Shown here one piece after another: positions 4,891-34,921 of a stretch of 39,977 nt of DNA. The notes beneath the pieces are model-generated. The model saw only the letters and a list, made by a program, of their open reading frames with translations, was not told the origin of the DNA and ran no database searches. Numbering within the stretch: position 1 is the first letter of the stretch; every line of letters starts with the position of its first letter. A program made the translations under genes and the position numbers. Source of the DNA: Bacilli bacterium (GTDB lineage Bacteria; Bacillota_I; Bacilli_A; ML615J-28; CAG-698); the NCBI GenBank assembly GCA_028691905.1, contig JAQUYJ010000001.1:1-39977 (forward strand), read 5' to 3'.

Positions 4891-5612
4891 GAATAGATAT
4901 TTTAACTTTATTCCCAGAGATGTTTGCCGGGATGCTGTCACAGTCGATATTGAAAAGGGCGATTGAACGTGACTTGGTTGAAGTGCATGTTCATGATTTC
5001 CGTTCTTTTGCGACGAACAAACATAAAAAAGTGGATGATACCATCTATGGTGGCGGTGCGGGAATGCTTATTTCTGTTGAGCCGATTGTCCGCTGCCTGC
5101 AGGCAATTCCGGGTTACGAACGGGCAACCAAAATTTTAACCACACCAGCGGGTATGACTTATACACAGGAAAAAGCTTGCTCTTTTGCGAAGCAAGATCA
5201 TTTGATCATTGTCTGTGGCCATTATGAGGGTATTGACGAACGGATTCTTCATTTTATTGATGAAGAAATATCGTTAGGTGATTTCATCCTAACAGGAGGG
5301 GAGATTGCCAGTCTTGCTATTGCTGACAGTGTGATTCGGTTGCTTCCGGAAGTAATCAATGAAATTTCAATTGCAAGTGAAAGCTATGTGGATGGATTGT
5401 TGGAATATCCCCAGTATACAAAACCACCCGTTTTTGAGGGGTTGGAAGTTCCTGAAGTACTCCTGTCAGGCAATCATGAAGCAATTCGCAGCTATCGGCG
5501 GTATATGGCAATTAAAAAAACATATCTTCGCCGGAAAGATTTATTGGAAAAAATGGAATTAAGTAAAGAAGACAATCAATTTTTAGAAAAAATCAAACAA
5601 GAAAACGATTAA
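4887..5612 (+). CDS. trmD: tRNA (guanine37-N1)-methyltransferase
   Basis: ATGA overlap with rimM. Motifs MRIDILTLFPEMF, GGGAGM, GHYEGIDER. Confidence 0.96.
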   Translation: MRIDILTLFPEMFAGMLSQSILKRAIERDLVEVHVHDFRSFATNKHKKVDDTIYGGGAGMLISVEPIVRCLQAIPGYERATKILTTPAGMTYTQEKACSFAKQDHLIIVCGHYEGIDERILHFIDEEISLGDFILTGGEIASLAIADSVIRLLPEVINEISIASESYVDGLLEYPQYTKPPVFEGLEVPEVLLSGNHEAIRSYRRYMAIKKTYLRRKDLLEKMELSKEDNQFLEKIKQEND

Positions 5613-5618
5613 AAATGA

Positions 5619-5647
5619 TTGCTATTTAAGAAGGTATATGGTATAAT
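5619..5647 (+). promoter_or_regulatory. Sigma-A promoter of rplS
   Basis: TTGCTA (5619-5624), 17-bp spacer, TATAAT (5642-5647) with upstream TGg (extended -10, tatggtataat). Confidence 0.65.
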
Positions 5648-5654
5648 AATTGAG

Positions 5655-5733
5655 GTTTGAAAAAGCCAAAGCACGGTGTTCCGCTACTATTCTTAGGATA
5701 GGAATGAACATTGGAAGAAGGAGCGTGAACGAA
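5655..5733 (+). promoter_or_regulatory. Possible ribosomal protein L19 leader (autoregulatory 5' UTR)
   Basis: An untranslated leader of about 80 nt lies between the promoter and the rplS RBS. It contains small hairpins (for example ctattc-tta-ggatag at about 5685-5699) and a ttctt tract complementary to the aagaa of the RBS region. L19 leaders are known in Bacilli, but I cannot verify the covariance model by eye. Confidence 0.3.
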
Positions 5734-6081
5734 ATGAGTCAACAATTGATTGATCAAATCACTAGTGAGTATATGCGTAATGATATTCCTGAATTCCGAC
5801 CTGGAGATACAGTAAAAGTGTTCGTTAAAATCAAGGAAGGTAACAGAGAACGTCTGCAAGCATTTGAAGGACTAGTAATCAAAAGACGCGGTGGAGGAAT
5901 CAGTGAAACGTATACAGTACGTAAAGTTTCCTATGGAATTGGTGTGGAAAGAACTTTTCCAATCCATACTCCAAATGTTGCTAAAATTGAAGTGGTTCGT
6001 AGAGGAAAAGTACGTCGAGCTAAATTAAATTACATTCGTACTTTATCAGCCAAGGCTGCTCGTATTAAAGAGCGCCGCTAA
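5734..6081 (+). CDS. rplS: 50S ribosomal protein L19
   Basis: ATG at 5734 with RBS gaaggag. [13 protein letters not shown]...FRPGDTVKV... is typical L19. The upstream part of the track ORF (5650-5733) is leader, not coding. Confidence 0.96.
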
Positions 6082-6084
6082 TAG

Positions 6085-6110
6085 AAAAGCAGGAAACTGC
6101 TTTTTTATTT
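6085..6110 (+). terminator. Rho-independent terminator after rplS
   Basis: aaaagcag-gaaa-ctgctttt followed by a T-run. Confidence 0.8.
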
Positions 6111-6128
6111 TAAAAATTTTTAAAAAAC

Positions 6129-6157
6129 TTGAAAAAGCTTTCATATTATGATACAAT
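6129..6157 (+). promoter_or_regulatory. Sigma-A promoter of the ccpA-like gene, overlapped by a cre-like box
   Basis: TTGAAA (6129-6134), 17-bp spacer, TACAAT (6152-6157) with TGa extended -10. The sequence tgaaaaagctttca (6130-6143) is cre-like with one central mismatch. Confidence 0.6.
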
Positions 6158-6186
6158 AAGACATCACAGTGAATAGAGGTGATTTT

Positions 6187-7173
6187 ATGAATCAAGCCAA
6201 GATATATGATATAGCCGGTGCTGCAGGTGTAAGTCTAGCTACTGTATCCCGTGTTTTAAACCATCCCGAAAAAGTGAAAAAAGGAACAAGAGAAAAAGTA
6301 CTTCGAATTATAAAAGAAAAAGGATATAAACCCAACGCCAATGCAAGGGGACTTGCAAGCAGAAAATCAACTACAGTAGCGGTTGTCGTTCCGACGGTTC
6401 TTAGGGCATCCATTTCTGAAATGATTCAGGGAATTGCCGACAGTGCAAAAAAATACGGATATTCCATTCGTCTTTTCGTCAATGGTCAGCATCAGACCAG
6501 TACGGATGCATGGTCCGATGTGATAGCATCCAGTGTGGATGGTATTTTGTTCATGAATGACGAAATGGAAAATGAAACATACGAGTTAATTGAACATACA
6601 CCAGTCCCTGTTATTTTTATTAATGCACTGTCAAAAAGCACTAAAATCGGCAGTGTCGGCATTGATAATGAAGACTGCTCCTACCGTGTTACAAAGGAAA
6701 TGATTACCCGTGGATTTAAAGATATTCTTTTCATTACAACCGAGCATAAATACGCAGTCAATGATTTAAAAGAAAAAGGATATCGTCGGGCAATGGAAGA
6801 ATTTCGTTTGCTACCATCTGTTTTTAAAAGCAGTGGTGATTTAGCAATAAACGAAAAGCAGTTCAAGGAAATGTTGGACAGTAGAACACCGGAAGTTGTT
6901 TTTGCGGTTCGTGATTCGATGGCGATTTCATTTATGAATGTGGCCAGCAAACGTGGAATCAAAATACCGGCACAAATGCAGGTTGTTGGTTTCCAGAATA
7001 CAAGATATGCTGAACTGTCCAATCCGAAACTAAGTTGCGTGGAAACACCGATTTATGAAATTGGCAATGTCGCCATGGAAAAATTAACAGAATTGATGAA
7101 AAATGCGGAAGAAACAAAACCGACAAATGTGGTAGTAGACTATCGAATTATTTATCGCGAATCAACTAAATAA
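6187..7173 (+). CDS. ccpA: LacI-family regulator, probable catabolite control protein A
   Basis: ATG at 6187 with RBS agaggtga. HTH IYDIAGAAGVSLATVSRVLN. As I remember B. subtilis CcpA, several blocks resemble it (GLASRKSTTVAVVVP, VDGILFMN, GFQNTRYAEL...IYEIGNVAMEKLTELM, C-terminal RESTK) and the length is similar. The position near tyrS also matches B. subtilis. Orthology needs an alignment to confirm. Confidence 0.65.
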   Translation: MNQAKIYDIAGAAGVSLATVSRVLNHPEKVKKGTREKVLRIIKEKGYKPNANARGLASRKSTTVAVVVPTVLRASISEMIQGIADSAKKYGYSIRLFVNGQHQTSTDAWSDVIASSVDGILFMNDEMENETYELIEHTPVPVIFINALSKSTKIGSVGIDNEDCSYRVTKEMITRGFKDILFITTEHKYAVNDLKEKGYRRAMEEFRLLPSVFKSSGDLAINEKQFKEMLDSRTPEVVFAVRDSMAISFMNVASKRGIKIPAQMQVVGFQNTRYAELSNPKLSCVETPIYEIGNVAMEKLTELMKNAEETKPTNVVVDYRIIYRESTK

Positions 7174-7199
7174 AAACGAAGAAAAAGAACAAGTAGACC

Positions 7200-7367
7200 T
7201 TTTTACATGCAGATAGAGAAATAGTGGCTGGTGAAAACTATTCTGTTGGAAGGATTGAAATACCTCTTTGGAGTTTTACCAAATAAATGAGGGCATCTGT
7301 TTACAGATGAACTAAGGTGGTACCGCTGGAAATTTCTAGTCCTTAGATAATATAAGGACTCTTTTTT
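7200..7367 (+). promoter_or_regulatory. T-box riboswitch leader, tyrosine-specific
   Basis: AGAGA bulge (7215-7219) and distal GGTGAAA. Candidate specifier UAC (7261-7263) after GAAA. T-box sequence aactaaggtggtaccgctgg (7310-7330). Terminator agtcctta / taaggact (7338-7360) plus T-run. ctaagg of the T-box is complementary to ccttag of the terminator 5' arm, giving the antiterminator. Confidence 0.9.
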
Positions 7368-13060: not shown

Positions 13061-15031
13061 ATGAAGAAAAATAACTTTATTGAGAATGTTAGAGATTTTT
13101 TCATTATTATTGGAAGAGCACTTAAAAATGCTTTTGTCCGTGCCTTTTTTGGTACACATAAAGAACTTTCCATGTTGGAAGAAGAAGCAGTAGAAAGTCC
13201 GCTAAAGGGAGCTACTCGGAAATTTTTTAAAAACAAATTAGCCATTATCGGCTTAATTGTGTTTCTCGCAATATTTGCGTTTTGTTTTGTTGGAAGTATT
13301 TTTATTAAGGATAAAGAGTATCGTTATTTAAATATTACACAAAGAAATATCAGCCCGGGCTATCAAATGATGGCTGTTCCCAAGGGCTTGCAGGAAAACG
13401 GAATACTGGATATAGCTGTTGGTTCAAAATACAGTGCCGGTATTGATTTAGACAACAATGTTTATCTGTGGGGACAGGACATTAACAACTTAGTAGAAGA
13501 CTTTCCCCAAGGTCAAGCTGCACCTTCTGATTTAAAAGTTGGAAGAGATGCGATTGCCGGTTTGAAAGCAAAACGTGTCTGGGCCGGTCAAACCCATTTT
13601 ATGTTTGAAAAAATGGACGGAACACTTGAAGGAATCGGAATACGAACAGATATCGTTTCATTTGGATTAACAGCAGTACCAACTGCCGTCTTGTCCGGAG
13701 CTGTATTGGTTAATATAGCACAGCAGATTCAATTGGATGGCGGTGTCCTGGACATGGTTTTATTTAATCAAATAAACCTCGTCATTACCAAAAAGAACCG
13801 CGTGTTTATGTGGGGAAATACGGTTGGAAGAACGACTAATTTTTCTGCAGTCAATGCTTTAAAACCAGTTCAAGCAGGATTTTCGCGCAGTAATATTACG
13901 TTTCTTTATGAAGATGGCACTGTTGGTGTTATCGGTGAAGGAAGTTTGAAAAATACCCTTCCCGCCGGACTGAGTGGCATTGTTCAGATTGTAACTACAG
14001 CGGGAAGTGCATTGGCATTAAAAGCTGATGGGACATTTATTACCTGGGGTGATAATTTGTCCAAGGAATTTGAATATGATGACTCCATCCAGGGCCGTAT
14101 TAAGAAATTATCTAAATCAGCTTTGGGCTCAGATAACTATCAGCATTTTACAGCTGTACTGGATGATGGATCAGTATATTCATGGGGAAGCAATCAATAC
14201 AATGCTTCCACTCCACCTAAAAAATTAGCAGAAGGAACCGAAGCAGCAAATGTATTTTCTGGATATTTCCAAAATTATGTCATTGACGAAGAAGGAAAAT
14301 TGCTGGGTACCTATGGATTAAAAGGACACTTGTTTGGAACAGATGATTATGGTCGGGATTTGTTGGACCGAGTAATGGGTGGCGGAAGAATTTCCTTAAC
14401 AATCGGATTGATTGCTGTCATCATTTCCACAACAATCGGAATTATTATTGGTGGTACTGCCGGATTTTACGGTGGTAGAGTAGATATATTATTAATGCGT
14501 TTTAGTGAAGTGGTTGGATCAATTCCATTCTTGCCGATTGCGATGACTTTCTCGGCAATTTTAAGCAGAACCAATCCTGATATGACAACGACGGATCGAA
14601 TGGTTATGATTATGATTATTCTCGGTGTCTTGAGTTGGACCGGATTGGCTTATCTTATTCGAGCTACCATTTTGTCAGAAAGAGAAAAGGAATTTGTTAC
14701 CGCTGCGAAAGCACTTGGTGTAAAAAACCGAGCAATTATATTCAGACATATTATTCCTAATGTATTAACTATTATTATTATCAGTGCAACTCTTGGTTAT
14801 GCATCTTCCTTATTGACTGAAGCTGGTCTTTCATTCCTGGGATTTGGTGTTCAGTTACCTGCTCCTTCTTGGGGGAACTTATTAACGGGTGCTCAGGAAA
14901 TGACAGTTATTAAAGTCTATTGGTGGCGTTGGGTATTCCCATCTGTCTTATTGTGTCTTGCAACCATAAGTATTAACTTAATCGGTGATGCAATAAGAGA
15001 TGCTGTGGATCCACGTTCCAGTGAAAGATAG
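13061..15031 (+). CDS. oppC: ABC transporter permease, OppC/DppC type, with a large RCC1-like repeat insertion after TM1
   Basis: 656 aa. TM1 is at about residues 59-82. The conserved OppC_N motif LFGTDDYGRDLLDRV is at about 424-438. EAA loop VTAAKALGVKNRAIIFRHIIPN. Residues of about 100-420 are extra and carry seven WG/IG/YG-terminated repeats. Confidence 0.88.
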   Translation: MKKNNFIENVRDFFIIIGRALKNAFVRAFFGTHKELSMLEEEAVESPLKGATRKFFKNKLAIIGLIVFLAIFAFCFVGSIFIKDKEYRYLNITQRNISPGYQMMAVPKGLQENGILDIAVGSKYSAGIDLDNNVYLWGQDINNLVEDFPQGQAAPSDLKVGRDAIAGLKAKRVWAGQTHFMFEKMDGTLEGIGIRTDIVSFGLTAVPTAVLSGAVLVNIAQQIQLDGGVLDMVLFNQINLVITKKNRVFMWGNTVGRTTNFSAVNALKPVQAGFSRSNITFLYEDGTVGVIGEGSLKNTLPAGLSGIVQIVTTAGSALALKADGTFITWGDNLSKEFEYDDSIQGRIKKLSKSALGSDNYQHFTAVLDDGSVYSWGSNQYNASTPPKKLAEGTEAANVFSGYFQNYVIDEEGKLLGTYGLKGHLFGTDDYGRDLLDRVMGGGRISLTIGLIAVIISTTIGIIIGGTAGFYGGRVDILLMRFSEVVGSIPFLPIAMTFSAILSRTNPDMTTTDRMVMIMIILGVLSWTGLAYLIRATILSEREKEFVTAAKALGVKNRAIIFRHIIPNVLTIIIISATLGYASSLLTEAGLSFLGFGVQLPAPSWGNLLTGAQEMTVIKVYWWRWVFPSVLLCLATISINLIGDAIRDAVDPRSSER

Positions 15032-15042
15032 GAGGAAACACG

Positions 15043-16038
15043 ATGGCACTATTAGAAGTTAAAGATCTCCACACTTTCTTTACAACCAAAAGAGGTATTG
15101 TAAAGGCAGTTAACGGAATGACATATGAATTGGAAGAAGGAAAAACATTGGGTATTGTTGGGGAAAGTGGTTCTGGAAAGAGCGTTTCCGCGATGAGTAT
15201 TCTTCGTTTACTGGATGGAAATGGTTATATTGACAGTGGAACTGTCCTTCTGGACGGTGTGGATCTGACAAAAGTTGATGAAGCAGCGCTGCAATATATC
15301 CGTGGCAATAAAATATCAGTCATTTTCCAAGAGCCCATGACCTCTTTAAATCCGGTATTTACTGTAGAAAAGCAAATTGGTGAAGTATTCCAAATTCACC
15401 AAGGAATGACAAAAAAAGAATCCTACGCGAAAAGTGTTGACTTATTGCGTGAAGTAGGGATTCCCAATCCGGAAAAAGTGGCAAAAAACTATCCCCATCA
15501 ATTAAGTGGCGGGATGAGACAACGGGTTATGATTGCGATGGCACTGGCCTGTCGTCCCCGAATTTTAATTGCGGATGAACCTACTACTGCTTTGGATGTA
15601 ACCATCCAAGCTCAGATTTTAAAATTAATGAATGACTTAAAAAAAGAATCCAATATGGCAATTATCTTTATTACTCATGATTTGGGTGTTATAAATGAAA
15701 TGGCTGATGATGTTATCGTTATGTATTGTGGTGAGATTGTAGAAAAGGCATCCGCAAAAGTGATTTTTGCGGAATCATCCGATTACACTCATCCTTATAC
15801 AGAAGGATTGATGACCTCTATTCCACGTTTAAACAAAGGAAAAGAGCGATTGGATGCCATCCCAGGTGCAGTTCCCCATCCACTTGATTTACCGGTAGGA
15901 TGTAAATTTGCACCCCGATGCAAATATGCAACAGCAAAATGCCAGGAAAAAGAACCGGATCTGCTATTGGTAGAAGAAGGACACAGCGTAAGATGTTTCT
16001 ATCCGAAAAAAGGGGTGAGAAGTAATGGCGAAAAGTAA
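15043..16038 (+). CDS. oppD: ABC transporter ATP-binding protein, OppD/DppD type
   Basis: Walker A GESGSGKS, signature LSGGMRQR, Walker [14 protein letters not shown]-terminal Opp-type Cys motif [18 protein letters not shown] aggagga. Confidence 0.93.
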
Positions 16039-18175
16039 AACACTGACCAATACTCCTTTAATTAAAATTGTAGGAGTAAAAAAGCACTTTCCACTGAAAA
16101 AAACGCGCTTGTTTCAACGAGAAGTTTTGACTGTAAAGGCAAATGATGGAATTGATTTAACTATAAACAAGGGAGAAACACTTGGTTTAGTAGGTGAAAG
16201 TGGTTGTGGGAAATCAACACTTGGCCGCGTATTACTGCAACTTTATCCTGTTACATCGGGGAAAATCATTTATTATGGTTATAATGTTGATCAATATGCA
16301 CCGAAATATTTTACGAGAGAAATAAGACGATTGCATTTGTCTAAGGAAATGCGGGAAAGACTGGAAGCAAAAATTCCCCTTCTTGAAGAAAAAATTAAAG
16401 AGCTGCAAGCCGATGAAGTTGAAAAGGCAAAACGAAATGAATTAGCTGCGAAAATAAAAGAATTGGAAAAAGCAAATCAGAATTTATGGGACGAATGCCA
16501 TGGTAAGCATCAGGCTTTCATCGTAAGTGAAGATATTCATGCTATCCGTCGTTTTCCAAAGTTGGATTCATATATTGCCAAGGCTGAAGCTAAAATTACG
16601 AAATTACAACAAAAAATTGACGATTATGAGGGTACGCGGGAAAGTGCAAAACAGTATCGTAATCCGAAAGCAGAAGCGGAAGTTGTAGAATTAAAAAAAC
16701 AAATCGAAGTTGCTGAATTAAGCTGCATTGCTGATTTAAATAAAAAATTAGCTATCGCAGAACGTAAAGCAAATTATAAATTATATGAATTGGATTTGAA
16801 TATTTTAAATACTCAGAATAAAATCAACTTAATCAAAAACGAAATGATGATGCACGCGCAGCGAATTAAATCCAGTTTAGATAAACCGATTGAATTAAGT
16901 TCTGATGTTCTGAAAAGCTTGGTTGAATATAAAGAAAAATATCATGCAAATAAGCAGTTAATCAAGCAATATCAAGCAGTAATCGACTTTAAAAAACAAA
17001 AAGATGAAATTCAAAAGATTCAAAACAGAATTGATAAAATTTTGGATAATGCTGCAAACGCAACCGGCGGTTATGTATTAAGCAATCAATCCTTAAAAGT
17101 ATCACAAAGCTTGTTTCAACGTGTTGCAAACTTACGTAAAATTGTCGATGAAGAAGAGAAAATTCAAATTTGCAAAGTAGCAAAGTTTAGAACTGAAAAA
17201 GAGCTGGAAGCAAAAAAGGATAAACTAACCAATTTGCAAATTAACAAATTGCAGAAAAAAATTGTGAAATACGAAGAAAACCTGGCTTTATCTGACCAAA
17301 AAATTCAAGAATTTAACCGTTTGGTTGACGAAGCCAATGTTGAATTAAGAAAACTAAAAGAAGAAGTCAAACAAAATGAATTATTTGATGAATTGGAAGC
17401 AAAAAGAGAAAAAGGAATTGATTTATCCCGTTTAACAAACGAGGAAATGCGTATTTTACGTAAACATCTCCAATTAATTTTCCAGGATCCTTATTCCTCA
17501 TTGAATCCAAGAATGACAGTTGGTCAGATTATTTATGAAGGTATAAGAGCGCATCATTTGGATGAACTGACTTATGACGACAAACAAGAACAAATTATCA
17601 AAGTAATGGAGAAATGCGGATTGGCACCATATATGCTTCATCGTTATCCTCATCAGTTTTCTGGTGGACAACGTCAACGAATCGGTATCGCTCGTGCCCT
17701 TGCTGTAAATCCGACTTTTGTCGTCTGCGATGAAGCTGTCAGTGCCCTTGACGTATCTATTCAATCACAGATAATCAACTTGCTCGAAGATTTAAGAGAC
17801 AATGAAAATCTAACCTACTTGTTTATTTCTCACGATTTAAGTGTTATTAAACATATTAGTGACCGAATCGGCGTTATGTATTTAGGTAATATGGTAGAAT
17901 TGGGTGATTCTGATGCAGTTTACGAAAGACCACTTCACCCTTATACCAAAGCTTTAATTTCATCTATTCCAACTACAGATCAGGAGCAAAGGAAACGAAT
18001 TTTATTAGAAGGAGATATTCCTTCCAATGTATTCCCACCTAGTGGATGTAAATTCAGAACCAGATGTCCATTGGCCCGTAAAGCATGTGCAGAAAAAGTA
18101 CCTGAGTTTAGAGAAGTAGAACCGGGAAGATTCGTTGCCTGTCATTTCTATGAAGAAACAGAAAATCTTAGATAG
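16025..18175 (+). CDS. oppF: ABC transporter ATP-binding protein, OppF/DppF type, interrupted by a coiled-coil insertion of about 375 aa
   Basis: 716 aa, with a 14-nt overlap with oppD. Walker A GESGCGKST (about residues 57-65). Q-loop LIFQDPYSSLNPR begins only at about residue 484. Signature FSGGQRQR, Walker B FVVCDEAVSALD, C-terminal GCKFRTRCPLARKAC. Residues of about 91-466 are Lys/Glu/Leu/Ile/Gln-rich and heptad-like. Confidence 0.9.
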   Translation: MAKSKTLTNTPLIKIVGVKKHFPLKKTRLFQREVLTVKANDGIDLTINKGETLGLVGESGCGKSTLGRVLLQLYPVTSGKIIYYGYNVDQYAPKYFTREIRRLHLSKEMRERLEAKIPLLEEKIKELQADEVEKAKRNELAAKIKELEKANQNLWDECHGKHQAFIVSEDIHAIRRFPKLDSYIAKAEAKITKLQQKIDDYEGTRESAKQYRNPKAEAEVVELKKQIEVAELSCIADLNKKLAIAERKANYKLYELDLNILNTQNKINLIKNEMMMHAQRIKSSLDKPIELSSDVLKSLVEYKEKYHANKQLIKQYQAVIDFKKQKDEIQKIQNRIDKILDNAANATGGYVLSNQSLKVSQSLFQRVANLRKIVDEEEKIQICKVAKFRTEKELEAKKDKLTNLQINKLQKKIVKYEENLALSDQKIQEFNRLVDEANVELRKLKEEVKQNELFDELEAKREKGIDLSRLTNEEMRILRKHLQLIFQDPYSSLNPRMTVGQIIYEGIRAHHLDELTYDDKQEQIIKVMEKCGLAPYMLHRYPHQFSGGQRQRIGIARALAVNPTFVVCDEAVSALDVSIQSQIINLLEDLRDNENLTYLFISHDLSVIKHISDRIGVMYLGNMVELGDSDAVYERPLHPYTKALISSIPTTDQEQRKRILLEGDIPSNVFPPSGCKFRTRCPLARKACAEKVPEFREVEPGRFVACHFYEETENLR

Positions 18176-18356
18176 GTTAAATGTTACTCCGGAAAAAGAG
18201 CGATTAGCAAAAGAAAATCTAAAAAATAATCCGTTGGAAAAGAATGATATGAAAGCGATAATGATTGCTGCATTTCTGGCTTTTGTTTTACCTACAATAC
18301 TTGTTCTGGGAGTAATAGCATTTATTATTTGGTTAATTATCATTATGATTGCATAA
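18150..18356 (+). CDS. Small hypothetical membrane protein (single C-terminal TM)
   Basis: The ORF fills the gap between the oppF stop (18175) and the operon terminator (18361). It has a charged N-terminal part and the hydrophobic stretch AIMIAAFLAFVLPTILVLGVIAFIIWLIIIMIA. No strong RBS is visible, and the start is uncertain (18135, 18150 or 18249). Confidence 0.4.
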   Translation: MKKQKILDRLNVTPEKERLAKENLKNNPLEKNDMKAIMIAAFLAFVLPTILVLGVIAFIIWLIIIMIA

Positions 18357-18896: not shown

Positions 18897-18919
18897 AAAA
18901 AGCCCGTTGGGCTTTTTTT
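18895..18919. terminator. Bidirectional terminator between spx and the CYTH gene
   Basis: A6-agccc-gtt-gggct-T7. Confidence 0.8.
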
Positions 18920-19517
18920 AATGCAATCTTTTATATGTGTTAAATGCACGTTTAATCTTTTTGTCGGATTTCTTATATTGAATATCAAAATCACTGATTA
19001 ATTGAATAAATTCTTTTTTCCCCAGTTCATAGTCTTTTGCTTCATATTCCATTTCATGGTCCATTAATTGGACTATTTTATTATCGTTCATAATAGTAGG
19101 GAACTGATAAGTGCTTTCATCAATAAAAAGGATACCGCTGTAGTAGTTAAGAAATAAACGGTTAGTGGAAAGACTTAAAAAATTTATCAGTTTTTGATCT
19201 TTAATAATATGGGATAATTCAGCTTGTAAATCTTCCAATTTCAATAAACCGGTTGTTTGTAACTCGATTAGTTCAGATTGGGTGATTGGAATGGAAATTT
19301 CATTGACAGAATATCCCTTTTTATGCTTAAGAGCAATCTCAAATCGGTCATCCCGTTCTTTAACCCGCAGGGAAATATCCTGTGCTTTTAATGAAAAACG
19401 AGGGGTATCAAAATAATGATTGGTTTGTAAGTCCGTTTTATTTCCTTGAAATTGATGAATTAATCGATTATATTCATCTTTTGTAAGCAGACTTCTGAAC
19501 TCTTTACCTTTTTGCAT
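18918..19517 (-). CDS. yjbK: CYTH-domain protein (YjbK-like triphosphate tunnel metalloenzyme family)
   Basis: 199 aa. The block NHYFDTPRFSLKAQDISLRVKER and the overall size resemble B. subtilis YjbK as I recall it. It is adjacent to the small alarmone synthetase, as in Bacilli. Confidence 0.75.
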   Translation of the reverse strand: MQKGKEFRSLLTKDEYNRLIHQFQGNKTDLQTNHYFDTPRFSLKAQDISLRVKERDDRFEIALKHKKGYSVNEISIPITQSELIELQTTGLLKLEDLQAELSHIIKDQKLINFLSLSTNRLFLNYYSGILFIDESTYQFPTIMNDNKIVQLMDHEMEYEAKDYELGKKEFIQLISDFDIQYKKSDKKIKRAFNTYKRLH

Positions 19518-19576: not shown

Positions 19577-19657
19577 CTATTTTTTACTTTTTTTTAATTA
19601 TTGAATAAAATGATGAAAAAAAACAAAAAATATGGTAAAATAGAAAGGGTGATGAAA

Positions 19658-20350
19658 ATGAAGGAAACATTTAATTGGACTCTTTTTTTACAACCGTATG
19701 AATTGGCGATAAATGGTTTTATTATAAAATTAGAATCAATCAAACAACAGTATATTTTGAATGGAAAAAAGAATCCAATTGAATTGATAACAGGGCGGGT
19801 AAAAACGCCGGAAAGTATTTTGGAAAAAGCAAAAAGACTACAGGTTGCTTTTGACGATATCCCGGAAAAAATCCAGGATATTGGGGGAATCCGAATTACC
19901 TGTAAGTATATTAACGATGTGTATTATGTTTTTGATTTACTTAAATCGAGAAAAGACATTGAAATTGTGTTAATAAAAGATTACATTAAGGAACCGAAGG
20001 CATCGGGATATCGTTCTCTTCACGCAATTGCAAGATATCATGTTGAAACCATTGACGGACAACAACCGATTTATATTGAATTTCAAATTCGGACTTTGGC
20101 GATGCATTTATGGGCAAGTATCGAACATTCCTTAAAATACAAATACGTCCGTAACATTCCGGAAAATATTCGAACACGGTTATTGAAAGCTTCTGAAATC
20201 ACAGCCGAACTGGATGCGGAAATGTCTTACATTCAAGCTGAAGTAGAAGCAGCCAATGGCTTGCATCATCCTGTTGAAGAAGTATTGAAAAAACACCAGG
20301 ACAGTGAATTGGAATGGGGTATTAATACACTGAAAAGAGGAAGTTTATGA
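19658..20350 (+). CDS. relQ: Small alarmone synthetase (RelQ/YjbM-type GTP pyrophosphokinase)
   Basis: RelA/SpoT synthetase motifs are present: GRVKTPESILEK, DIGGIRITC, SGYRSLH, EFQIRTLAMHLWASIEH. The start at 19658 (MKETFNWTLFLQPYE) aligns with YjbM-type N-termini and has RBS aaagggtga. A tatggTAAAAT box at 19631-19641 would give a very short leader. Confidence 0.88.
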   Translation: MKETFNWTLFLQPYELAINGFIIKLESIKQQYILNGKKNPIELITGRVKTPESILEKAKRLQVAFDDIPEKIQDIGGIRITCKYINDVYYVFDLLKSRKDIEIVLIKDYIKEPKASGYRSLHAIARYHVETIDGQQPIYIEFQIRTLAMHLWASIEHSLKYKYVRNIPENIRTRLLKASEITAELDAEMSYIQAEVEAANGLHHPVEEVLKKHQDSELEWGINTLKRGSL

Positions 20351-21108
20351 AATACCATATTTTTGGTGAAAAAAAAGAAGCCCTTCATTTGGAAGAATTA
20401 CTCCAACGAAGAAAACATATAAAAGATGATGTTTATCCCGATATAGTGTTCTCTTTGGGTGGGGACGGAACAATCCTGAAGGCTGTGCAAAAGTTTGTAG
20501 CCCAAAAAAACGTAAAATTTGTAGGAATCAATTTAGGGAAATTAGGATTCTATACGGACTATGAATGCAAAGAAGCGGATCAAATGCTGTATGATATAGA
20601 GAATGGACAATATCAACTGGCCAGTTATTCTCTGCTTGAATATGTTTTTAAAAACGATGATATAGCTTATCAAGGTTACAGTTTGAATGAAATAGCTATT
20701 ATCAGCCCCATTCATACGCAAATTATTGATGTTTTTATTGATCAAAAGCATTTTGAAACTTTTCGGGGAACCGGATTTCTTATTGCCACACCCACTGGAT
20801 CAACAGCATATAATAAATCATTGGGGGGAAGTGTAATTGACCCCAATATTCAGGCAATGCAATTGACTGAGATTGCTTCTATCAACAACCGAGTATATAA
20901 AACACTGTCATCGTCCCTGGTCTTTTCCAAGCAAACCAAATTGACATTGCAATCCAATTTTGAGAACGACTATATAACAGTGGACGGAATATTTAATGAA
21001 TTTAGAAAAGTGAAAGAAATTATAGTGAGTCTTTCCGATAAAACAGCTAATTTTATCGTAAAAAATCGAACCGATTTTTGGGATCGAGTGAAAAAAAGTT
21101 TTTTATAA
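20347..21108 (+). CDS. nadK: NAD kinase
   Basis: ATGA overlap with relQ. Motifs GGDGTIL, NLGKLGF, TPTGSTAYNKSLGG. Confidence 0.93.
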   Translation: MKYHIFGEKKEALHLEELLQRRKHIKDDVYPDIVFSLGGDGTILKAVQKFVAQKNVKFVGINLGKLGFYTDYECKEADQMLYDIENGQYQLASYSLLEYVFKNDDIAYQGYSLNEIAIISPIHTQIIDVFIDQKHFETFRGTGFLIATPTGSTAYNKSLGGSVIDPNIQAMQLTEIASINNRVYKTLSSSLVFSKQTKLTLQSNFENDYITVDGIFNEFRKVKEIIVSLSDKTANFIVKNRTDFWDRVKKSFL

Positions 21109-21118
21109 GGAGAATAAA

Positions 21119-21634
21119 ATGAATAAACAGAATGTATATGTAGCTTTTGATGGGAAAAATGATATTAAAGAATTTGCCAATTTTGAAGAATGGGAAAAAA
21201 CTGAAAATTATCCCTTTCATTTCATTAACGGAATGGAAGTTGCCCTTCGATTGGATAAAGAAAGCGATGAAGTGTTAAAGAAAAAATTGGGAGAGTTAAT
21301 CGATTCCTGTGCAATTTTTGTTGTATTGGTTACAAAAACAACAAAAAGTTTCCGTCGTTTTGTAAAGTGGCAAGTCGAATATGCCATTGAAAAGGGAATG
21401 CCAATCATCGTTTCCAATACGAATTTGATTCGTTCGGTCGACTATGACCGCTGCCCGATGAAATTAAAAAAAGCTTTATCCTTGCATATCGCCAATAATC
21501 AGGAAATCGTATCCTATGCTCTGCTGAATTGGCCTGCCAGTCATCAAGATCACCTTCAGAATGAGCGAATACAAACATTTCGATATGAAAAGGAACTATA
21601 TGATTTTTATCATATAAAAACATCACCATTTTAA
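21119..21634 (+). CDS. TIR-like domain protein (DUF1863 / MTH538 / ThsB-like family)
   Basis: 171 aa, strong RBS aaggaga, 10 nt after the nadK stop. The pattern VYVAFDGKND...(acidic/aromatic region)...SCAIFVVLVTKTTKSFRRFVKWQVEYAIEKGMPIIV fits the flavodoxin-like TIR fold of DUF1863 proteins. Assigned by eye only. Confidence 0.6.
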   Translation: MNKQNVYVAFDGKNDIKEFANFEEWEKTENYPFHFINGMEVALRLDKESDEVLKKKLGELIDSCAIFVVLVTKTTKSFRRFVKWQVEYAIEKGMPIIVSNTNLIRSVDYDRCPMKLKKALSLHIANNQEIVSYALLNWPASHQDHLQNERIQTFRYEKELYDFYHIKTSPF

Positions 21635-21664: not shown

Positions 21665-21690
21665 AAAAGTAGACCGAGGTCTACTTTTTT
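21665..21690. terminator. Bidirectional terminator between the TIR-like gene and clpP
   Basis: aaaagtagac-cgag-gtctactttttt. It overlaps the clpP stop codon. Confidence 0.8.
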
Positions 21691-22262
21691 GTCATGATAT
21701 CATCGATGATACCATATGTTTTTGCTTCTTCCGCAAACATATAGAAATCGCGTTCGGTATCAACACTGATTGTCTCAATTGGCTGGTTGGTCTGCTTCGC
21801 AAGAATAGCATTCATTTTTTCACGGATACGGTAAATATGCTTTGCTGCAATTTGAATGTCTGTAGATTGACCCTGGGCACCACCCATTGGCTGGTGAATC
21901 ATAATTTCACTGTTTGGAAGGGCAAAGCGTTTCCCTTTGGCACCGCTGGCCAGAATGAAAGCAGCCATCGATGCAGCCATCCCTAGGCAAATCGTTGAAA
22001 CTGCGGGTTGGATGAACTGAATGGTGTCATAAATAGCCATCCCGGCAGTAATGGAACCACCTGGAGAATTGATATATAGATAGATATCTTTTTCCGTATC
22101 TTCTGCAGCAAGAAATAATAATTGCGCAACAACACTATTGGCTAAATGGTCATCGATTTCTCCGCAAAGCATAATGATTCTGTCCTTCAACAAGCGGGAG
22201 TAAATATCATAGGAACGTTCACCGTGCGGAGTATTTTCTATTACGATAGGTGTATTGTACAT
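21681..22262 (-). CDS. clpP: ATP-dependent Clp protease proteolytic subunit
   Basis: 193 aa. [25 protein letters not shown] (Ser), IMIHQP (His). Confidence 0.97.
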
Positions 22263-25027: not shown

Positions 25028-25253
25028 AACAAATCGATGATGGAGAACCAGTATATTGATTTTGTCTTTTCAGAGAGGAAATGGGTGGTGCAAATTTCCA
25101 GGACAACCAATAGAATTCATCTCCGGAGTGACTCCAATCCAGTCCGTTTACCTGGCGTTAACAGGGAACGAGGGCATCAATTACGTAATTGGTGAACTAA
25201 GGTGGTACCGCGATTTTTTCGTCCTTAGAAGACATCTCTTCTAAGGATTTTCT
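25028..25253 (+). promoter_or_regulatory. T-box riboswitch leader, phenylalanine-specific
   Basis: AGAGAGG bulge (25072-25078). Specifier GAA-UUC-A (UUC at 25116-25118). T-box aactaaggtggtaccgcg (25195-25212). Terminator tccttagaaga / tcttctaagga (25222-25247) plus a T-rich tail. Confidence 0.92.
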
Positions 25254-33168: not shown

Positions 33169-33580
33169 GATAAGTCATTTTACGATGTTTTATGCCTGCA
33201 TCCAGGAAGACGGGTCCTGTTGCCTGAAACCCCAACTGTTCATAAAAAGGGATGGCACTGACCTGTGATTCTAGGATAATATCAGTAATACCTTTTTTAA
33301 AAATATCCCGAATAATTTTTTTCATCAGTTGTAAACCAAAATGTTTCCCCCGATAGGCTTGGTCCACACAGACGCGGCCTATTTTCGCGTAATCGTCAAT
33401 TATTTTATATCGGGCAGTTGCAATACAAGCCGTATCTTTCACCAAGATGTAAATTTCATAGTCCTTATCTTCCAAATCAAATTCCAGCGGATAACTGACT
33501 TGCTGTTCATCGATAAACACTTTTTTCCGAAGAATATAACTGTCAATTAAATCGTCTTTTTTCTTACATATTTTTATCAT
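33149..33580 (-). CDS. GNAT-family N-acetyltransferase
   Basis: Start at MIKICKKKDD (ATGA overlap with the uppP stop). Acetyl-CoA motif VCVDQAYRGKHFGLQLM. Confidence 0.85.
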   Translation of the reverse strand: MIKICKKKDDLIDSYILRKKVFIDEQQVSYPLEFDLEDKDYEIYILVKDTACIATARYKIIDDYAKIGRVCVDQAYRGKHFGLQLMKKIIRDIFKKGITDIILESQVSAIPFYEQLGFQATGPVFLDAGIKHRKMTYQKKQGN

Positions 33581-34398
33581 GCAGTCACTCCCAAATAAAT
33601 AAAAATAGCCAAAGAAACAAGAAGGCAATAATAACCAAAGTACTTTAAATTATTCTTTCTAACCAGTTTGAAGAAGAAATGAATGGATAGAAAGGTTCCG
33701 ATGATGCTCATAAGGAAGGCCCCAATATAGCCGGCAAAGAAAGTCTGTTCCATATCGATATCAAGGATACCCAATAACAGGGAGGCAAAACTCACAGGAA
33801 TGTACATCATGAAGGAAAAACGAAGTGCTTTTTCCAATTGGGCTTTGTTAGCCACTCCAAATGAAGTGGTTACACCGGAACGGGATATTCCGGGCAGTAA
33901 ACCAAATATTTGCGCAACACCCATTAATATTGCCGTTTTTAAAGTGATATTTTCCTGATCTGCTCTTTTCGACATGGCTTGGATAAATAAAAGCAACCCT
34001 CCGGTAATCAATAAACAGATTGCAACGGACAATAGAGTGGACAGGGTGGAGTCGATTAAATCTTTCAATAATAAACCGGCAATACCTGCAGGAATGGTCG
34101 CAGCAATAACAAGAACAATATAAATAAAATCTTTTTGATATTCTTTCTGTTTTTTAAAAAGATAGCGAAAAGCTCCAACAATTATTTCTTTCAAAAATAA
34201 ACGGTAATAAAGAATGATGGCAATCAGTGATCCAAAATTAACAAAAATATTAAAATTGAGTTCATCATTCATTATTACACCAAAAATATTTTTGAATATT
34301 ACCAGATGACCGCTGGAAGATATGGGGAGCGGTTCGGTTATTCCCTGTACCAGACCGAGTAAGACATATTTCAAAAAATCTAAAAAAGCCAGTATCAT
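33577..34398 (-). CDS. uppP: Undecaprenyl-diphosphate phosphatase
   Basis: Start at MILAFLDFLKYVLLGLVQGITEPLPISSSGHL with RBS gaggtga 5 nt upstream. PGISRSG motif. TGA stop. Confidence 0.92.
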   Translation of the reverse strand: MILAFLDFLKYVLLGLVQGITEPLPISSSGHLVIFKNIFGVIMNDELNFNIFVNFGSLIAIILYYRLFLKEIIVGAFRYLFKKQKEYQKDFIYIVLVIAATIPAGIAGLLLKDLIDSTLSTLLSVAICLLITGGLLLFIQAMSKRADQENITLKTAILMGVAQIFGLLPGISRSGVTTSFGVANKAQLEKALRFSFMMYIPVSFASLLLGILDIDMEQTFFAGYIGAFLMSIIGTFLSIHFFFKLVRKNNLKYFGYYCLLVSLAIFIYLGVTA

Positions 34399-34478
34399 TA
34401 AGTTCACCTCTTCTTTAAAAAAGTATATCACATTTCCGAAAAAAAAGAAAGATGAAATCGCGAAACGAAATGTTTTTA

Positions 34479-34507
34479 TTAACAAAAAACAAGATTTGTG
34501 CTATAAT
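34479..34507 (+). promoter_or_regulatory. Sigma-A promoter of the EIIB-like gene / tkt
   Basis: TTAACA (34479-34484), 17-bp spacer, TATAAT (34502-34507) with TGc extended -10. Confidence 0.6.
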
Positions 34508-34534
34508 AGGGATGAAAAAGAAAGGAATGATAGG

Positions 34535-34921
34535 ATGTTATTTTTAGAATCAAATGCATTTCAATTAATTTTATGGTTACTGTTGGTACCACTAGTATTA
34601 ATAGCCATTCTCATCATTGTAGCTGTCATTGTTCGAATTCAAAAACAAGGCAAGGTTAACAGTGCCCGTAAACAAAAAATAGTTACAGAAGCAATTGATT
34701 ATGAACAGCAATTGGTTTTTTATCGGGCATTTGGCGGTAAAGAAAACATGCTTCAAATCGAACAGAATTTATCAAGAATATCTGTTCAGGTTGAAGATGT
34801 GAATAAAGTTGATGCCATGCTCCTGAAGGAATTGGGTGCGAATGGGGTATTGATTTCTGATCATATGGTAAAATGTTCGTTTGGTGACCGGGCAGAATAT
34901 ATTTATCAATTATTGAAGTAG
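34535..34921 (+). CDS. Membrane-anchored PTS EIIB-like domain protein lacking the phospho-acceptor cysteine
   Basis: ATG at 34535 (RBS aaaggaa). The upstream part of the track ORF overlaps uppP on the other strand. N-terminal TM (about residues 8-34). The C-terminal AFGGKENMLQIEQNLSRISVQVEDVNKVDAMLLKELGANGV aligns to the glucose-family EIIB motif GGKENI...C(I/A)TRLR, with Asn replacing Cys. Confidence 0.7.
   Translation: MLFLESNAFQLILWLLLVPLVLIAILIIVAVIVRIQKQGKVNSARKQKIVTEAIDYEQQLVFYRAFGGKENMLQIEQNLSRISVQVEDVNKVDAMLLKELGANGVLISDHMVKCSFGDRAEYIYQLLK

Follow-up and report, generated by a model that had tools for sequence, protein, structure and literature searches.

The window analyzed here, the whole 39,977-nucleotide (nt) stretch of contig JAQUYJ010000001.1 from a Bacilli bacterium, carries directly behind an NAD kinase gene a gene for a TIR-like protein of the ThsB family, which we call thsB-like. 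Its product is a full-length ThsB resembling EcThsB2 of the Escherichia coli Thoeris defense system. It belongs to one monophyletic clade with a glutamine at position 85 in place of the catalytic glutamate (the Q85 clade), whose members have no adjacent ThsA_Macro gene, are found as the last gene of operons of nicotinamide adenine dinucleotide (NAD) metabolism, and evolve under purifying selection. Judging from these sequence features, we tentatively favor domestication: this ThsB would have lost the canonical mechanism and may act as a pyridine-nucleotide-binding sensor or regulator of NAD(P) supply.

The open reading frame (ORF) at 21119-21634 on the plus strand had been singled out in a preliminary description of the window. 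It is present as described there, with an ATG start and 171 codons, and the two peptide segments quoted from it, VYVAFDG and SCAIFVVLVTKTTKSFRRFVKWQVEYAIEKGMPIIV, occur in it exactly. The strong ribosome-binding site and the 10-nt gap after nadK were both found as well (AAGGAGA; nadK stop codon TAA at 21106-21108), and the neighbors named at the time, a CYTH gene on the minus strand, a small alarmone synthetase and an NAD kinase, are all borne out by profile matches. The features of the locus are the following.

18918-19517, minus strand: CYTH-domain gene, yjbK-like (Pfam, 5.8e-12), divergent from relQ
19601-20350, plus strand: relQ/yjbM-like small alarmone synthetase gene (RelA_SpoT in Pfam, 1.3e-30; NF053588, 241 bits, under the cutoff of 320)
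20347-21108, plus strand: nadK, NAD kinase of 253 amino acids (aa) (PF01513 and PF20143; NCBIfam NF003424, 251 bits, cutoff 220), directly upstream of the thsB-like gene in the same operon
21107-21113, plus strand: ribosome-binding site AAGGAGA, overlapping the nadK stop codon and 5 nt upstream of the thsB-like ATG
21119-21634, plus strand: thsB-like gene, 171 aa, ATG start, TIR-like domain of the EcThsB2 or type II Thoeris "subfamily 9" type
21137-21139, plus strand: codon TAT for Tyr7, which corresponds to Tyr8 in the active site of EcThsB2
21371-21373, plus strand: codon CAA for Gln85, aligned with the catalytic Glu of EcThsB2 (E89), of Bacillus cereus ThsB (E85) and of 8wcf
21377-21379, plus strand: codon GAA for Glu87, the catalytic candidate of the preliminary description, two positions past the catalytic site
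about 21665-21688, both strands: bidirectional intrinsic-terminator hairpin common to the thsB-like gene and the convergent clpP
21681-22262, minus strand: clpP, convergent, the downstream boundary of the operon

The window has the gene arrangement that defines the relQ-nadK operon of Bacilli, with a divergent CYTH gene upstream, and the reading frames of relQ and nadK overlap by 4 nt (relQ stop, nadK start). The thsB-like gene ends, as had been noted, at a bidirectional terminator shared with clpP. The hairpin (GUAGACC-GAGG-GGUCUAC) lies between an A-run and a T-run, overlaps the end of clpP, and has a minimum free energy of -14 kcal/mol (z = -3.2 versus shuffled sequences). The genes relQ, nadK and thsB-like thus form an operon that ends at this terminator, and we infer that they are co-transcribed. 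The start of relQ in the window is uncertain, a TTG at 19601 giving 249 aa and an ATG at 19610 giving 246 aa; versions of 230 aa are called in other assemblies, and the window RelQ falls short of the NCBIfam YjbM equivalog cutoff (241 versus 320 bits).

The assignment to the TIR-like DUF1863 (PF08937) fold and to ThsB, originally made by eye, holds. Pfam PF08937 (ThsB_TIR) matched residues 7 to 98 with 41.1 bits against a gathering score of 21.2 (E = 2.4e-10), and the PADLOC model ThsB1 (PDLC00429) matched the full length (E = 7e-39); no model of NCBIfam matched the protein. Among PDB sequences, the single protein matched 8v6t (EcThsB2) at 1.7e-9, and a profile of 30 homologues matched the same entry over positions 1 to 167 (E = 1.7e-37), followed by the other ThsB structures 9uv0, 3hyn, 8wcf and 9b7d/6lhy. 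An AlphaFold2 model computed from the 30-sequence alignment (pLDDT 94.8, pTM 0.91) had 8v6t as its top Foldseek match in the PDB (E = 1e-11, TM score 0.84, root mean square deviation 2.4, 172 columns). Far lower scores were obtained for 3hyn, other ThsBs, the MilB and BcmB CMP N-glycosidases, NDTs, DNPH1 and the SARM1 TIR domain.

EcThsB2 comes from a type II Thoeris system of E. coli whose ThsA is a TM-macro protein, and it is the type member of "ThsB subfamily 9" (PMC11204291). Members of this subfamily resemble NDT and DNPH1 enzymes in having a hydrogen bond between the active-site Tyr and the catalytic Glu, and their C-terminal tail, about 20 residues long, is folded back onto the domain (PMC11204291). 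The class has been linked to the production of His-ADP-ribose (His-ADPR), and the Bacillus amyloliquefaciens ThsB, which makes His-ADPR, was assigned to it (Shi et al., Sci Adv 2024, PMC11204291). The thsB-like protein is firmly placed in this EcThsB2-like subfamily 9 of type II Thoeris. Its modeled C-terminal strand 153-155 and helix 158-163 fall inside the full-length superposition on 8v6t, and the tail tyrosines Y159 and Y164 of EcThsB2 correspond to its Y156 and Y161. Homologues are few: HMMER, run exhaustively against 1.84 billion representatives, returned 182 proteins at E <= 1e-3 and just 4 at E <= 1e-30.

The active-site residues of EcThsB2 are Y8 and E89 (PMC11204291). E89 corresponds to Gln85 of the thsB-like protein in both the profile alignment and the global pairwise alignment, and the register is anchored by the invariant Pro95, which follows ten residues later with no gap in between. 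The WxxxE-type motif is missing, the protein having F81-V-K-W-Q85 versus WVRYEIM in B. cereus ThsB and WVKYEIE in 8wcf. At position 85, 139 of 177 family members have E and 27 have Q; all 23 distinct members of the clade have Q. Tyr7, the counterpart of Y8, is replaced by Phe in roughly one third of the clade members, among them L022, L052, L027, L028 and L045.

The preliminary description had proposed Glu87, the E in KWQVEYA, as the catalytic glutamate. That candidate was ruled out by three independent PDB alignments and by the published EcThsB2 residues, which put the catalytic position at Gln85. Position 87 is variable across the 177 family members (E, D, Q, N, K, S, R, T, V or P). An acidic residue is present there in 24 of 27 Q85 proteins versus 119 of 139 E85 proteins and is thus no more frequent in the former, so no relocated catalytic acid is evident. 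Since the catalytic position is Gln85 in the protein and throughout its clade, an NAD-consuming enzyme or one making signals of the cyclic ADP-ribose (cADPR) type, as had been suggested, is a less likely reading. In TIR, CD38 and NDT enzymes, replacing the catalytic Glu by Gln is a standard way to abolish activity and trap the substrate. One such protein is among the Foldseek matches, the E88Q variant of an NDT (8pqq), which served as a substrate trap and has its substrate bound.

We gathered further loci by exact-protein look-ups, a genome scan with 9 sequences and a metagenome scan. In a neighbor-joining tree, the 23 distinct Q85/E87 proteins formed one clade, sister to the E85 ThsBs. All of them come from metagenomes or from metagenome-assembled genomes (MAGs) of uncultured "Bacilli bacterium" or "Bacillota"; the samples include rumen, a rabbit-derived ("Lapin") MAG and fermentation metagenomes, and the nearest named NadK homologues are from Bacilli and Acholeplasmataceae MAGs. 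Among the MAGs in which the clade occurs are GCA_053527915.1, GCA_947627195.1 and GCA_050953065.1. The gene contexts were as follows.

Context A, relQ-nadK-thsB: the window, L007/L023, L018, L022, L024, L037, L042, L043, L044, L052 and L053
Context A2, CYTH-nadK-thsB with CYTH divergent and without relQ: L027, L028, L045 and L046
Context B, pncB, a guanylate-kinase-family gene and thsB: L030, L047, L048, L050 and L051
Context B variant, with a major facilitator superfamily gene and an unknown gene inserted: L013/L026
Context C, thsB beside hipA and an ABC transporter: L029

In context A, thsB lies 8 to 12 nt past nadK, and the convergent clpP is next wherever the contig extends that far. In context B (7923-10522 in L030, 4178-9125 in L013), pncB encodes a nicotinate phosphoribosyltransferase (NF006695, 683 bits, cutoff 469), and the kinase-family gene scored 98 bits on the guanylate kinase model, under the equivalog cutoff of 160. 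A guanine-nucleotide gene is present in both NAD contexts, namely relQ (context A) or the gmk-like gene (context B).

An operon link with relQ, nadK and the facing CYTH gene had been suggested for the window gene. Its placement behind relQ-nadK is real and the linkage to nadK is conserved, but the gene is not tied to relQ or CYTH. A functional link specific to either of these is weakened by L027, L028 and L045, which have no relQ, and by context B, which has neither. Because relQ is missing at some of the nadK-thsB loci, the link is with NAD genes, namely nadK or, in a sister subclade, pncB. As the nadK linkage is kept in many diverged relatives, it does not reflect a chance insertion private to the window genome.

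The ratio of nonsynonymous to synonymous substitution rates (dN/dS) was 0.06 to 0.17 for pairs with unsaturated dS, in the nadK and pncB subclades alike. Copies of the window gene in other samples, compared within the species, differed at 7 nucleotides, and all 7 changes were synonymous. Identities between lineages were 35 to 52% for the ThsB-like protein, 48 to 63% for NadK, about 65 to 72% for RelQ and about 74 to 81% for ClpP; the thsB-like gene evolves faster than its neighbors, yet under clear constraint. In comparison with 83 E85 proteins, the clade has its own fixed positions (K47, D50, S77, R79, Q85, I104 and K117), and it has kept the family core (D11, D15, K54, W84, A89, P95, N100, N102, R105, D108, P113 and Y161). 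This combination is the pattern expected of an altered function, not of decay. A chance or recent insertion was ruled out by the conserved linkage, the low dN/dS and the housekeeping context.

It may be that the altered site is that of a re-tooled enzyme, in which the Tyr/Gln pocket and another acid (E87, D11 or D108) would act on NAD(P)+, nicotinate mononucleotide (NaMN) or nicotinamide mononucleotide (NMN). Such a protein might be a housekeeping N-glycosidase or a base-exchange enzyme serving NAD salvage or the turnover of NADP. Its position next to nadK or pncB would then be explained, and the presence of two different NAD-gene contexts agrees with this idea. The fold relatives MilB, BcmB, DNPH1 and NDT in the Foldseek list are nucleoside 5'-monophosphate N-glycosidases, and subfamily 9 ThsBs carry an NDT/DNPH1-like Tyr-Glu site. 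The strong purifying selection, together with the fixed polar or basic residues K47, D50, S77, R79 and K117, also suggests a site that was remodeled rather than decayed. However, the residue that serves as nucleophile or oxocarbenium stabilizer in all characterized relatives is a Gln here, and E-to-Q mutants are inactive (8pqq). Conservation of E87 is not higher in the Q85 clade than among the E85 relatives, and the loss of Tyr7 to Phe in part of the clade also speaks against such chemistry. We regard a re-tooled enzyme as rather unlikely, although it deserves more weight than the two defense-related explanations considered below.

The absence of a ThsA-like effector from the window, already reported in the preliminary description, was confirmed by Pfam, PADLOC and tblastn. 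No ThsA, SIR2, SLOG or Macro gene was detected in the 40-kb window by Pfam on all ORFs of at least 90 aa or by PADLOC on 38 proteins, and tblastn with two ThsA_Macro proteins gave no match in the window or within 8 to 10 kb at any Q85 locus. Among the 38 window proteins, PADLOC matched ThsB models to the thsB-like ORF only. Its other matches, for the 38 proteins taken together (mad3, mad8, Csa3, CasR, AriA and AbiLi), included no ThsA model.

The E85 relatives P0157 and P0166 directly adjoin a PF20016 ThsA_Macro gene, near resolvases, Peptidase_M78 or ApeA, and P0171 lies inside a BREX island. E85 relatives on plasmids of Carnobacterium and Brucella have the WE motif and adjoin annotated macro-domain genes, restriction-modification systems and integrases. 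At L035 (1899-2889; likewise in L036), the ThsA_Macro gene beside an E85 ThsB matches the ThsA of L031 in two frames (residues 1-232 and 231-320), which suggests a frameshifted, possibly inactivated effector.

No phage homologues of the thsB-like protein were found in our searches, and its plasmid homologues are only about 30% identical and are ordinary Thoeris II pairs; a mobile-element origin of the window copy was rejected on these grounds. The gene is located in a housekeeping window, with synteny conserved across MAGs whose NadK proteins are 48 to 63% identical, and not in a defense island or mobile element. With both the catalytic Glu and an adjacent ThsA looked for and absent, the gene should not be filed as a Thoeris system.

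The protein could still be an orphan Thoeris sensor whose ThsA (TM-macro or other) is encoded distally, the site after nadK being a neutral landing site. Its homology to type II ThsB is clear and includes a C-terminal tail of autoinhibitory appearance, and its presence or absence among syntenic sister genomes, described below, is that of an accessory gene. The catalytic Glu, however, is lost in every member of the clade. More than 20 loci have no ThsA within 8 to 10 kb, whereas the E85 relatives have ThsA_Macro adjacent or overlapping. The gene has been inherited vertically for a long time in a core operon, as judged from the NadK identities, and with low dN/dS; the second landing site is again an NAD operon; and no phage or plasmid copies of the Q85 clade were found. 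We therefore consider an orphan sensor improbable.

An inactive TIR protein co-expressed with NadK or PncB could also serve as a guard or decoy, which would detect or absorb phage factors aimed at ThsB-type proteins or at the host NAD supply and would signal by protein-protein contact instead of a nucleotide. Phage proteins that bind ThsB exist, and the ThsB-Tad3 complex 9b7d is among the Foldseek matches. NAD supply is a known battleground in the Thoeris literature, which we counted in favor of this idea. The window, however, contains no other defense gene according to PADLOC, and the conservation of the gene resembles that of housekeeping genes. Of the explanations named here, a guard or decoy appears the least probable, and we consider it very unlikely.

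We return to the view of the protein as a domesticated, pyridine-nucleotide-binding ThsB. The replacement of Glu85 by Gln would have removed the canonical Glu-dependent NAD+ cleavage or base exchange. The nucleotide pocket would have been retained (Tyr7, Gln85 and the conserved D11, D15, N100, R105 and D108), such that the protein would bind a pyridine or ADPR-type nucleotide (NAD+, NADP+ or an ADPR-like compound) with no turnover. Produced in step with NadK or PncB, it might sense, buffer or regulate NAD(P) supply rather than serve as a phage sensor making His-ADPR. In a fuller version, which we consider possible but doubtful, an immune TIR sensor has turned into a non-immune binder of pyridine nucleotides, catalytically silent or re-tooled, that tunes or reports the NAD(P) pool and may be tied to guanine-nucleotide or (p)ppGpp control. 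The last connection is suggested by the presence of relQ or a gmk-like gene in the operon. The probability left over by the preferred reading and its three rivals falls to an unrelated function.

Several points weigh against the preferred reading. A sister MAG (L054) with the same synteny has relQ-nadK followed by clpP after a 26-nt gap, without thsB. In addition, the nadK locus L055 (CYTH, nadK, clpP) has no thsB and belongs to the same MAG as L029, GCA_050953065.1. The gene is thus dispensable, as judged from these syntenic sister genomes, and the L029/L055 arrangement indicates that linkage to NAD genes is not obligatory. The many nadK-linked loci probably descend from one ancestral insertion that was kept by regional synteny, which leaves few independent placements: nadK, pncB and one outside NAD metabolism (L029, hipA). 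Where Q85, E87 and the clade-specific residues lie with respect to the pocket was judged from alignments only. Finally, EcThsB2 gave no NADase activity in vitro despite its Glu (PMC11204291); the activity of the subfamily is thus poorly understood, and a member with Gln might still be catalytic. Nevertheless, two of the three placements are at NAD biosynthesis genes or one gene away from them. By rough reasoning rather than computation, this is unlikely to be due to chance, as such genes make up a small fraction of a genome.

Two side observations concern the same genomes. The synteny of L054 around 5001-6355 comprises spx, CYTH, relQ, nadK, clpP and pheST, and the thsB-like gene thus shows presence/absence variation at the exact site. 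In GCA_050953065.1, the Q85 thsB-like gene is on a separate contig, beside hipA/hipA_N and an ABC transporter (L029).

To our knowledge, the only described role of ThsB-type TIR proteins is that of phage sensors, which produce nucleotide signals for an adjacent effector. The Q85 clade departs from that pattern, being without an adjacent effector and without the catalytic Glu, vertically inherited, and twice recruited into NAD operons. Our literature searches pairing ThsB or DUF1863 with NAD kinase found nothing, and those on catalytically inactive or glutamine ThsB and on TIR, nicotinate phosphoribosyltransferase and Thoeris found nothing relevant; a recent systematic survey of TIR proteins discarded standalone ones outside multigene operons. 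If our proposal is true, the clade would clearly exemplify the exaptation of a bacterial immune TIR module into core housekeeping metabolism or, as a less likely alternative, would point to a metabolic ancestry of ThsB. A natural "E-to-Q substrate trap" might then also reveal the physiological ligand of subfamily 9 ThsBs. "ThsB" matches of defense-finding programs should be treated with caution, as they can be non-defense genes. The finding should surprise specialists; it is confined to uncultured Bacilli, and the function is a proposal drawn from sequence.

By Pfam annotation of its ORFs, every other gene of the window is a housekeeping gene. They comprise an arginase-family gene, an ArsR regulator with a P-type ATPase, rimM, trmD, rplS and a LacI regulator; tyrS, trpS, the opp operon and spx, besides CYTH, relQ, nadK and clpP; an acyltransferase, a DcuC-type carrier, pheST, ispH, chrA, galM, efp and coaX; and a GNAT acetyltransferase, uppP, tkt, peptidases and trmB. 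Two T-box leaders scored above the Rfam gathering score, at 7170-7347 upstream of tyrS and at 25028-25229 upstream of pheS.

The OppC-like and OppF-like genes, at 13061-15031 and 16025-18175, are unusual. The OppC-like permease (656 aa) has RCC1/WD40-like repeats between its OppC_N and permease domains, and the OppF-like ATPase (716 aa) has a Lys/Glu-rich, coiled-coil-like insert of about 390 aa between its ABC and oligo_HPY domains; both oddities recur in related MAGs (L007, 755 and 534 aa; L037, 749 aa). An ORF of 73 aa with a hydrophobic C-terminal half (18135-18356) overlaps the end of oppF, and a gene of 65 to 75 aa is called at that site in L001, L010, L053 and L054. An ORF of 199 aa at 34322-34921 has no Pfam match and overlaps the 5' end of uppP/BacA on the opposite strand (33577-34485) by about 160 nt; either its true start lies later or it is spurious.

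Compared with known systems, the thsB-like protein is closest to EcThsB2. The two share the full-length fold, a size of about 170 aa, the N-terminal (T/V)YVAF strand bearing the active-site Tyr, the F-x-x-x-(E/Q) helix, the NxN...R..D..CP loop and the C-terminal tail of some 20 residues with two equally spaced Tyr. They differ in that Glu89 of EcThsB2 is Gln85 here and in that identity is only about 22%. Unlike that of EcThsB2, the gene has no adjacent ThsA_Macro, is part of a core operon with nadK (or pncB), not of a defense island or plasmid, and is inherited vertically within one Bacilli lineage. The type I Thoeris ThsB of B. cereus MSX-D12 (BcThsB; 6lhy, 9b7d), a 3'cADPR synthase, has the same TIR-like/DUF1863 fold and an aligned WxxxE-type helix, but similarity to it is weak (profile E = 3e-4, TM score about 0.4). 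It has W...E(85) versus F81...Q85, and its partner is a SIR2-SLOG ThsA. With the NDT/DNPH1/MilB-BcmB superfamily, the protein has in common a flavodoxin-like fold and a Tyr beside the catalytic acid (Foldseek TM score about 0.5). Those enzymes, however, require a Glu nucleophile, and the matches are in structure only, at 12 to 15% identity and with no significant sequence similarity.

The gene order resembles that of Bacillus subtilis, yjbL-yjbM-(ppnKA)-yjbO(rluD) (PMC3814617), in which yjbM is relQ and ppnKA is nadK; spx, the divergent CYTH gene and the order relQ-nadK-third gene are shared. That a pseudouridine synthase gene, yjbO, holds the equivalent position in B. subtilis had been stated in the preliminary description and is confirmed by the same source. 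The third gene is a pseudouridine synthase gene in B. subtilis, is missing from some sister MAGs (L054), and is the thsB-like gene in the window.

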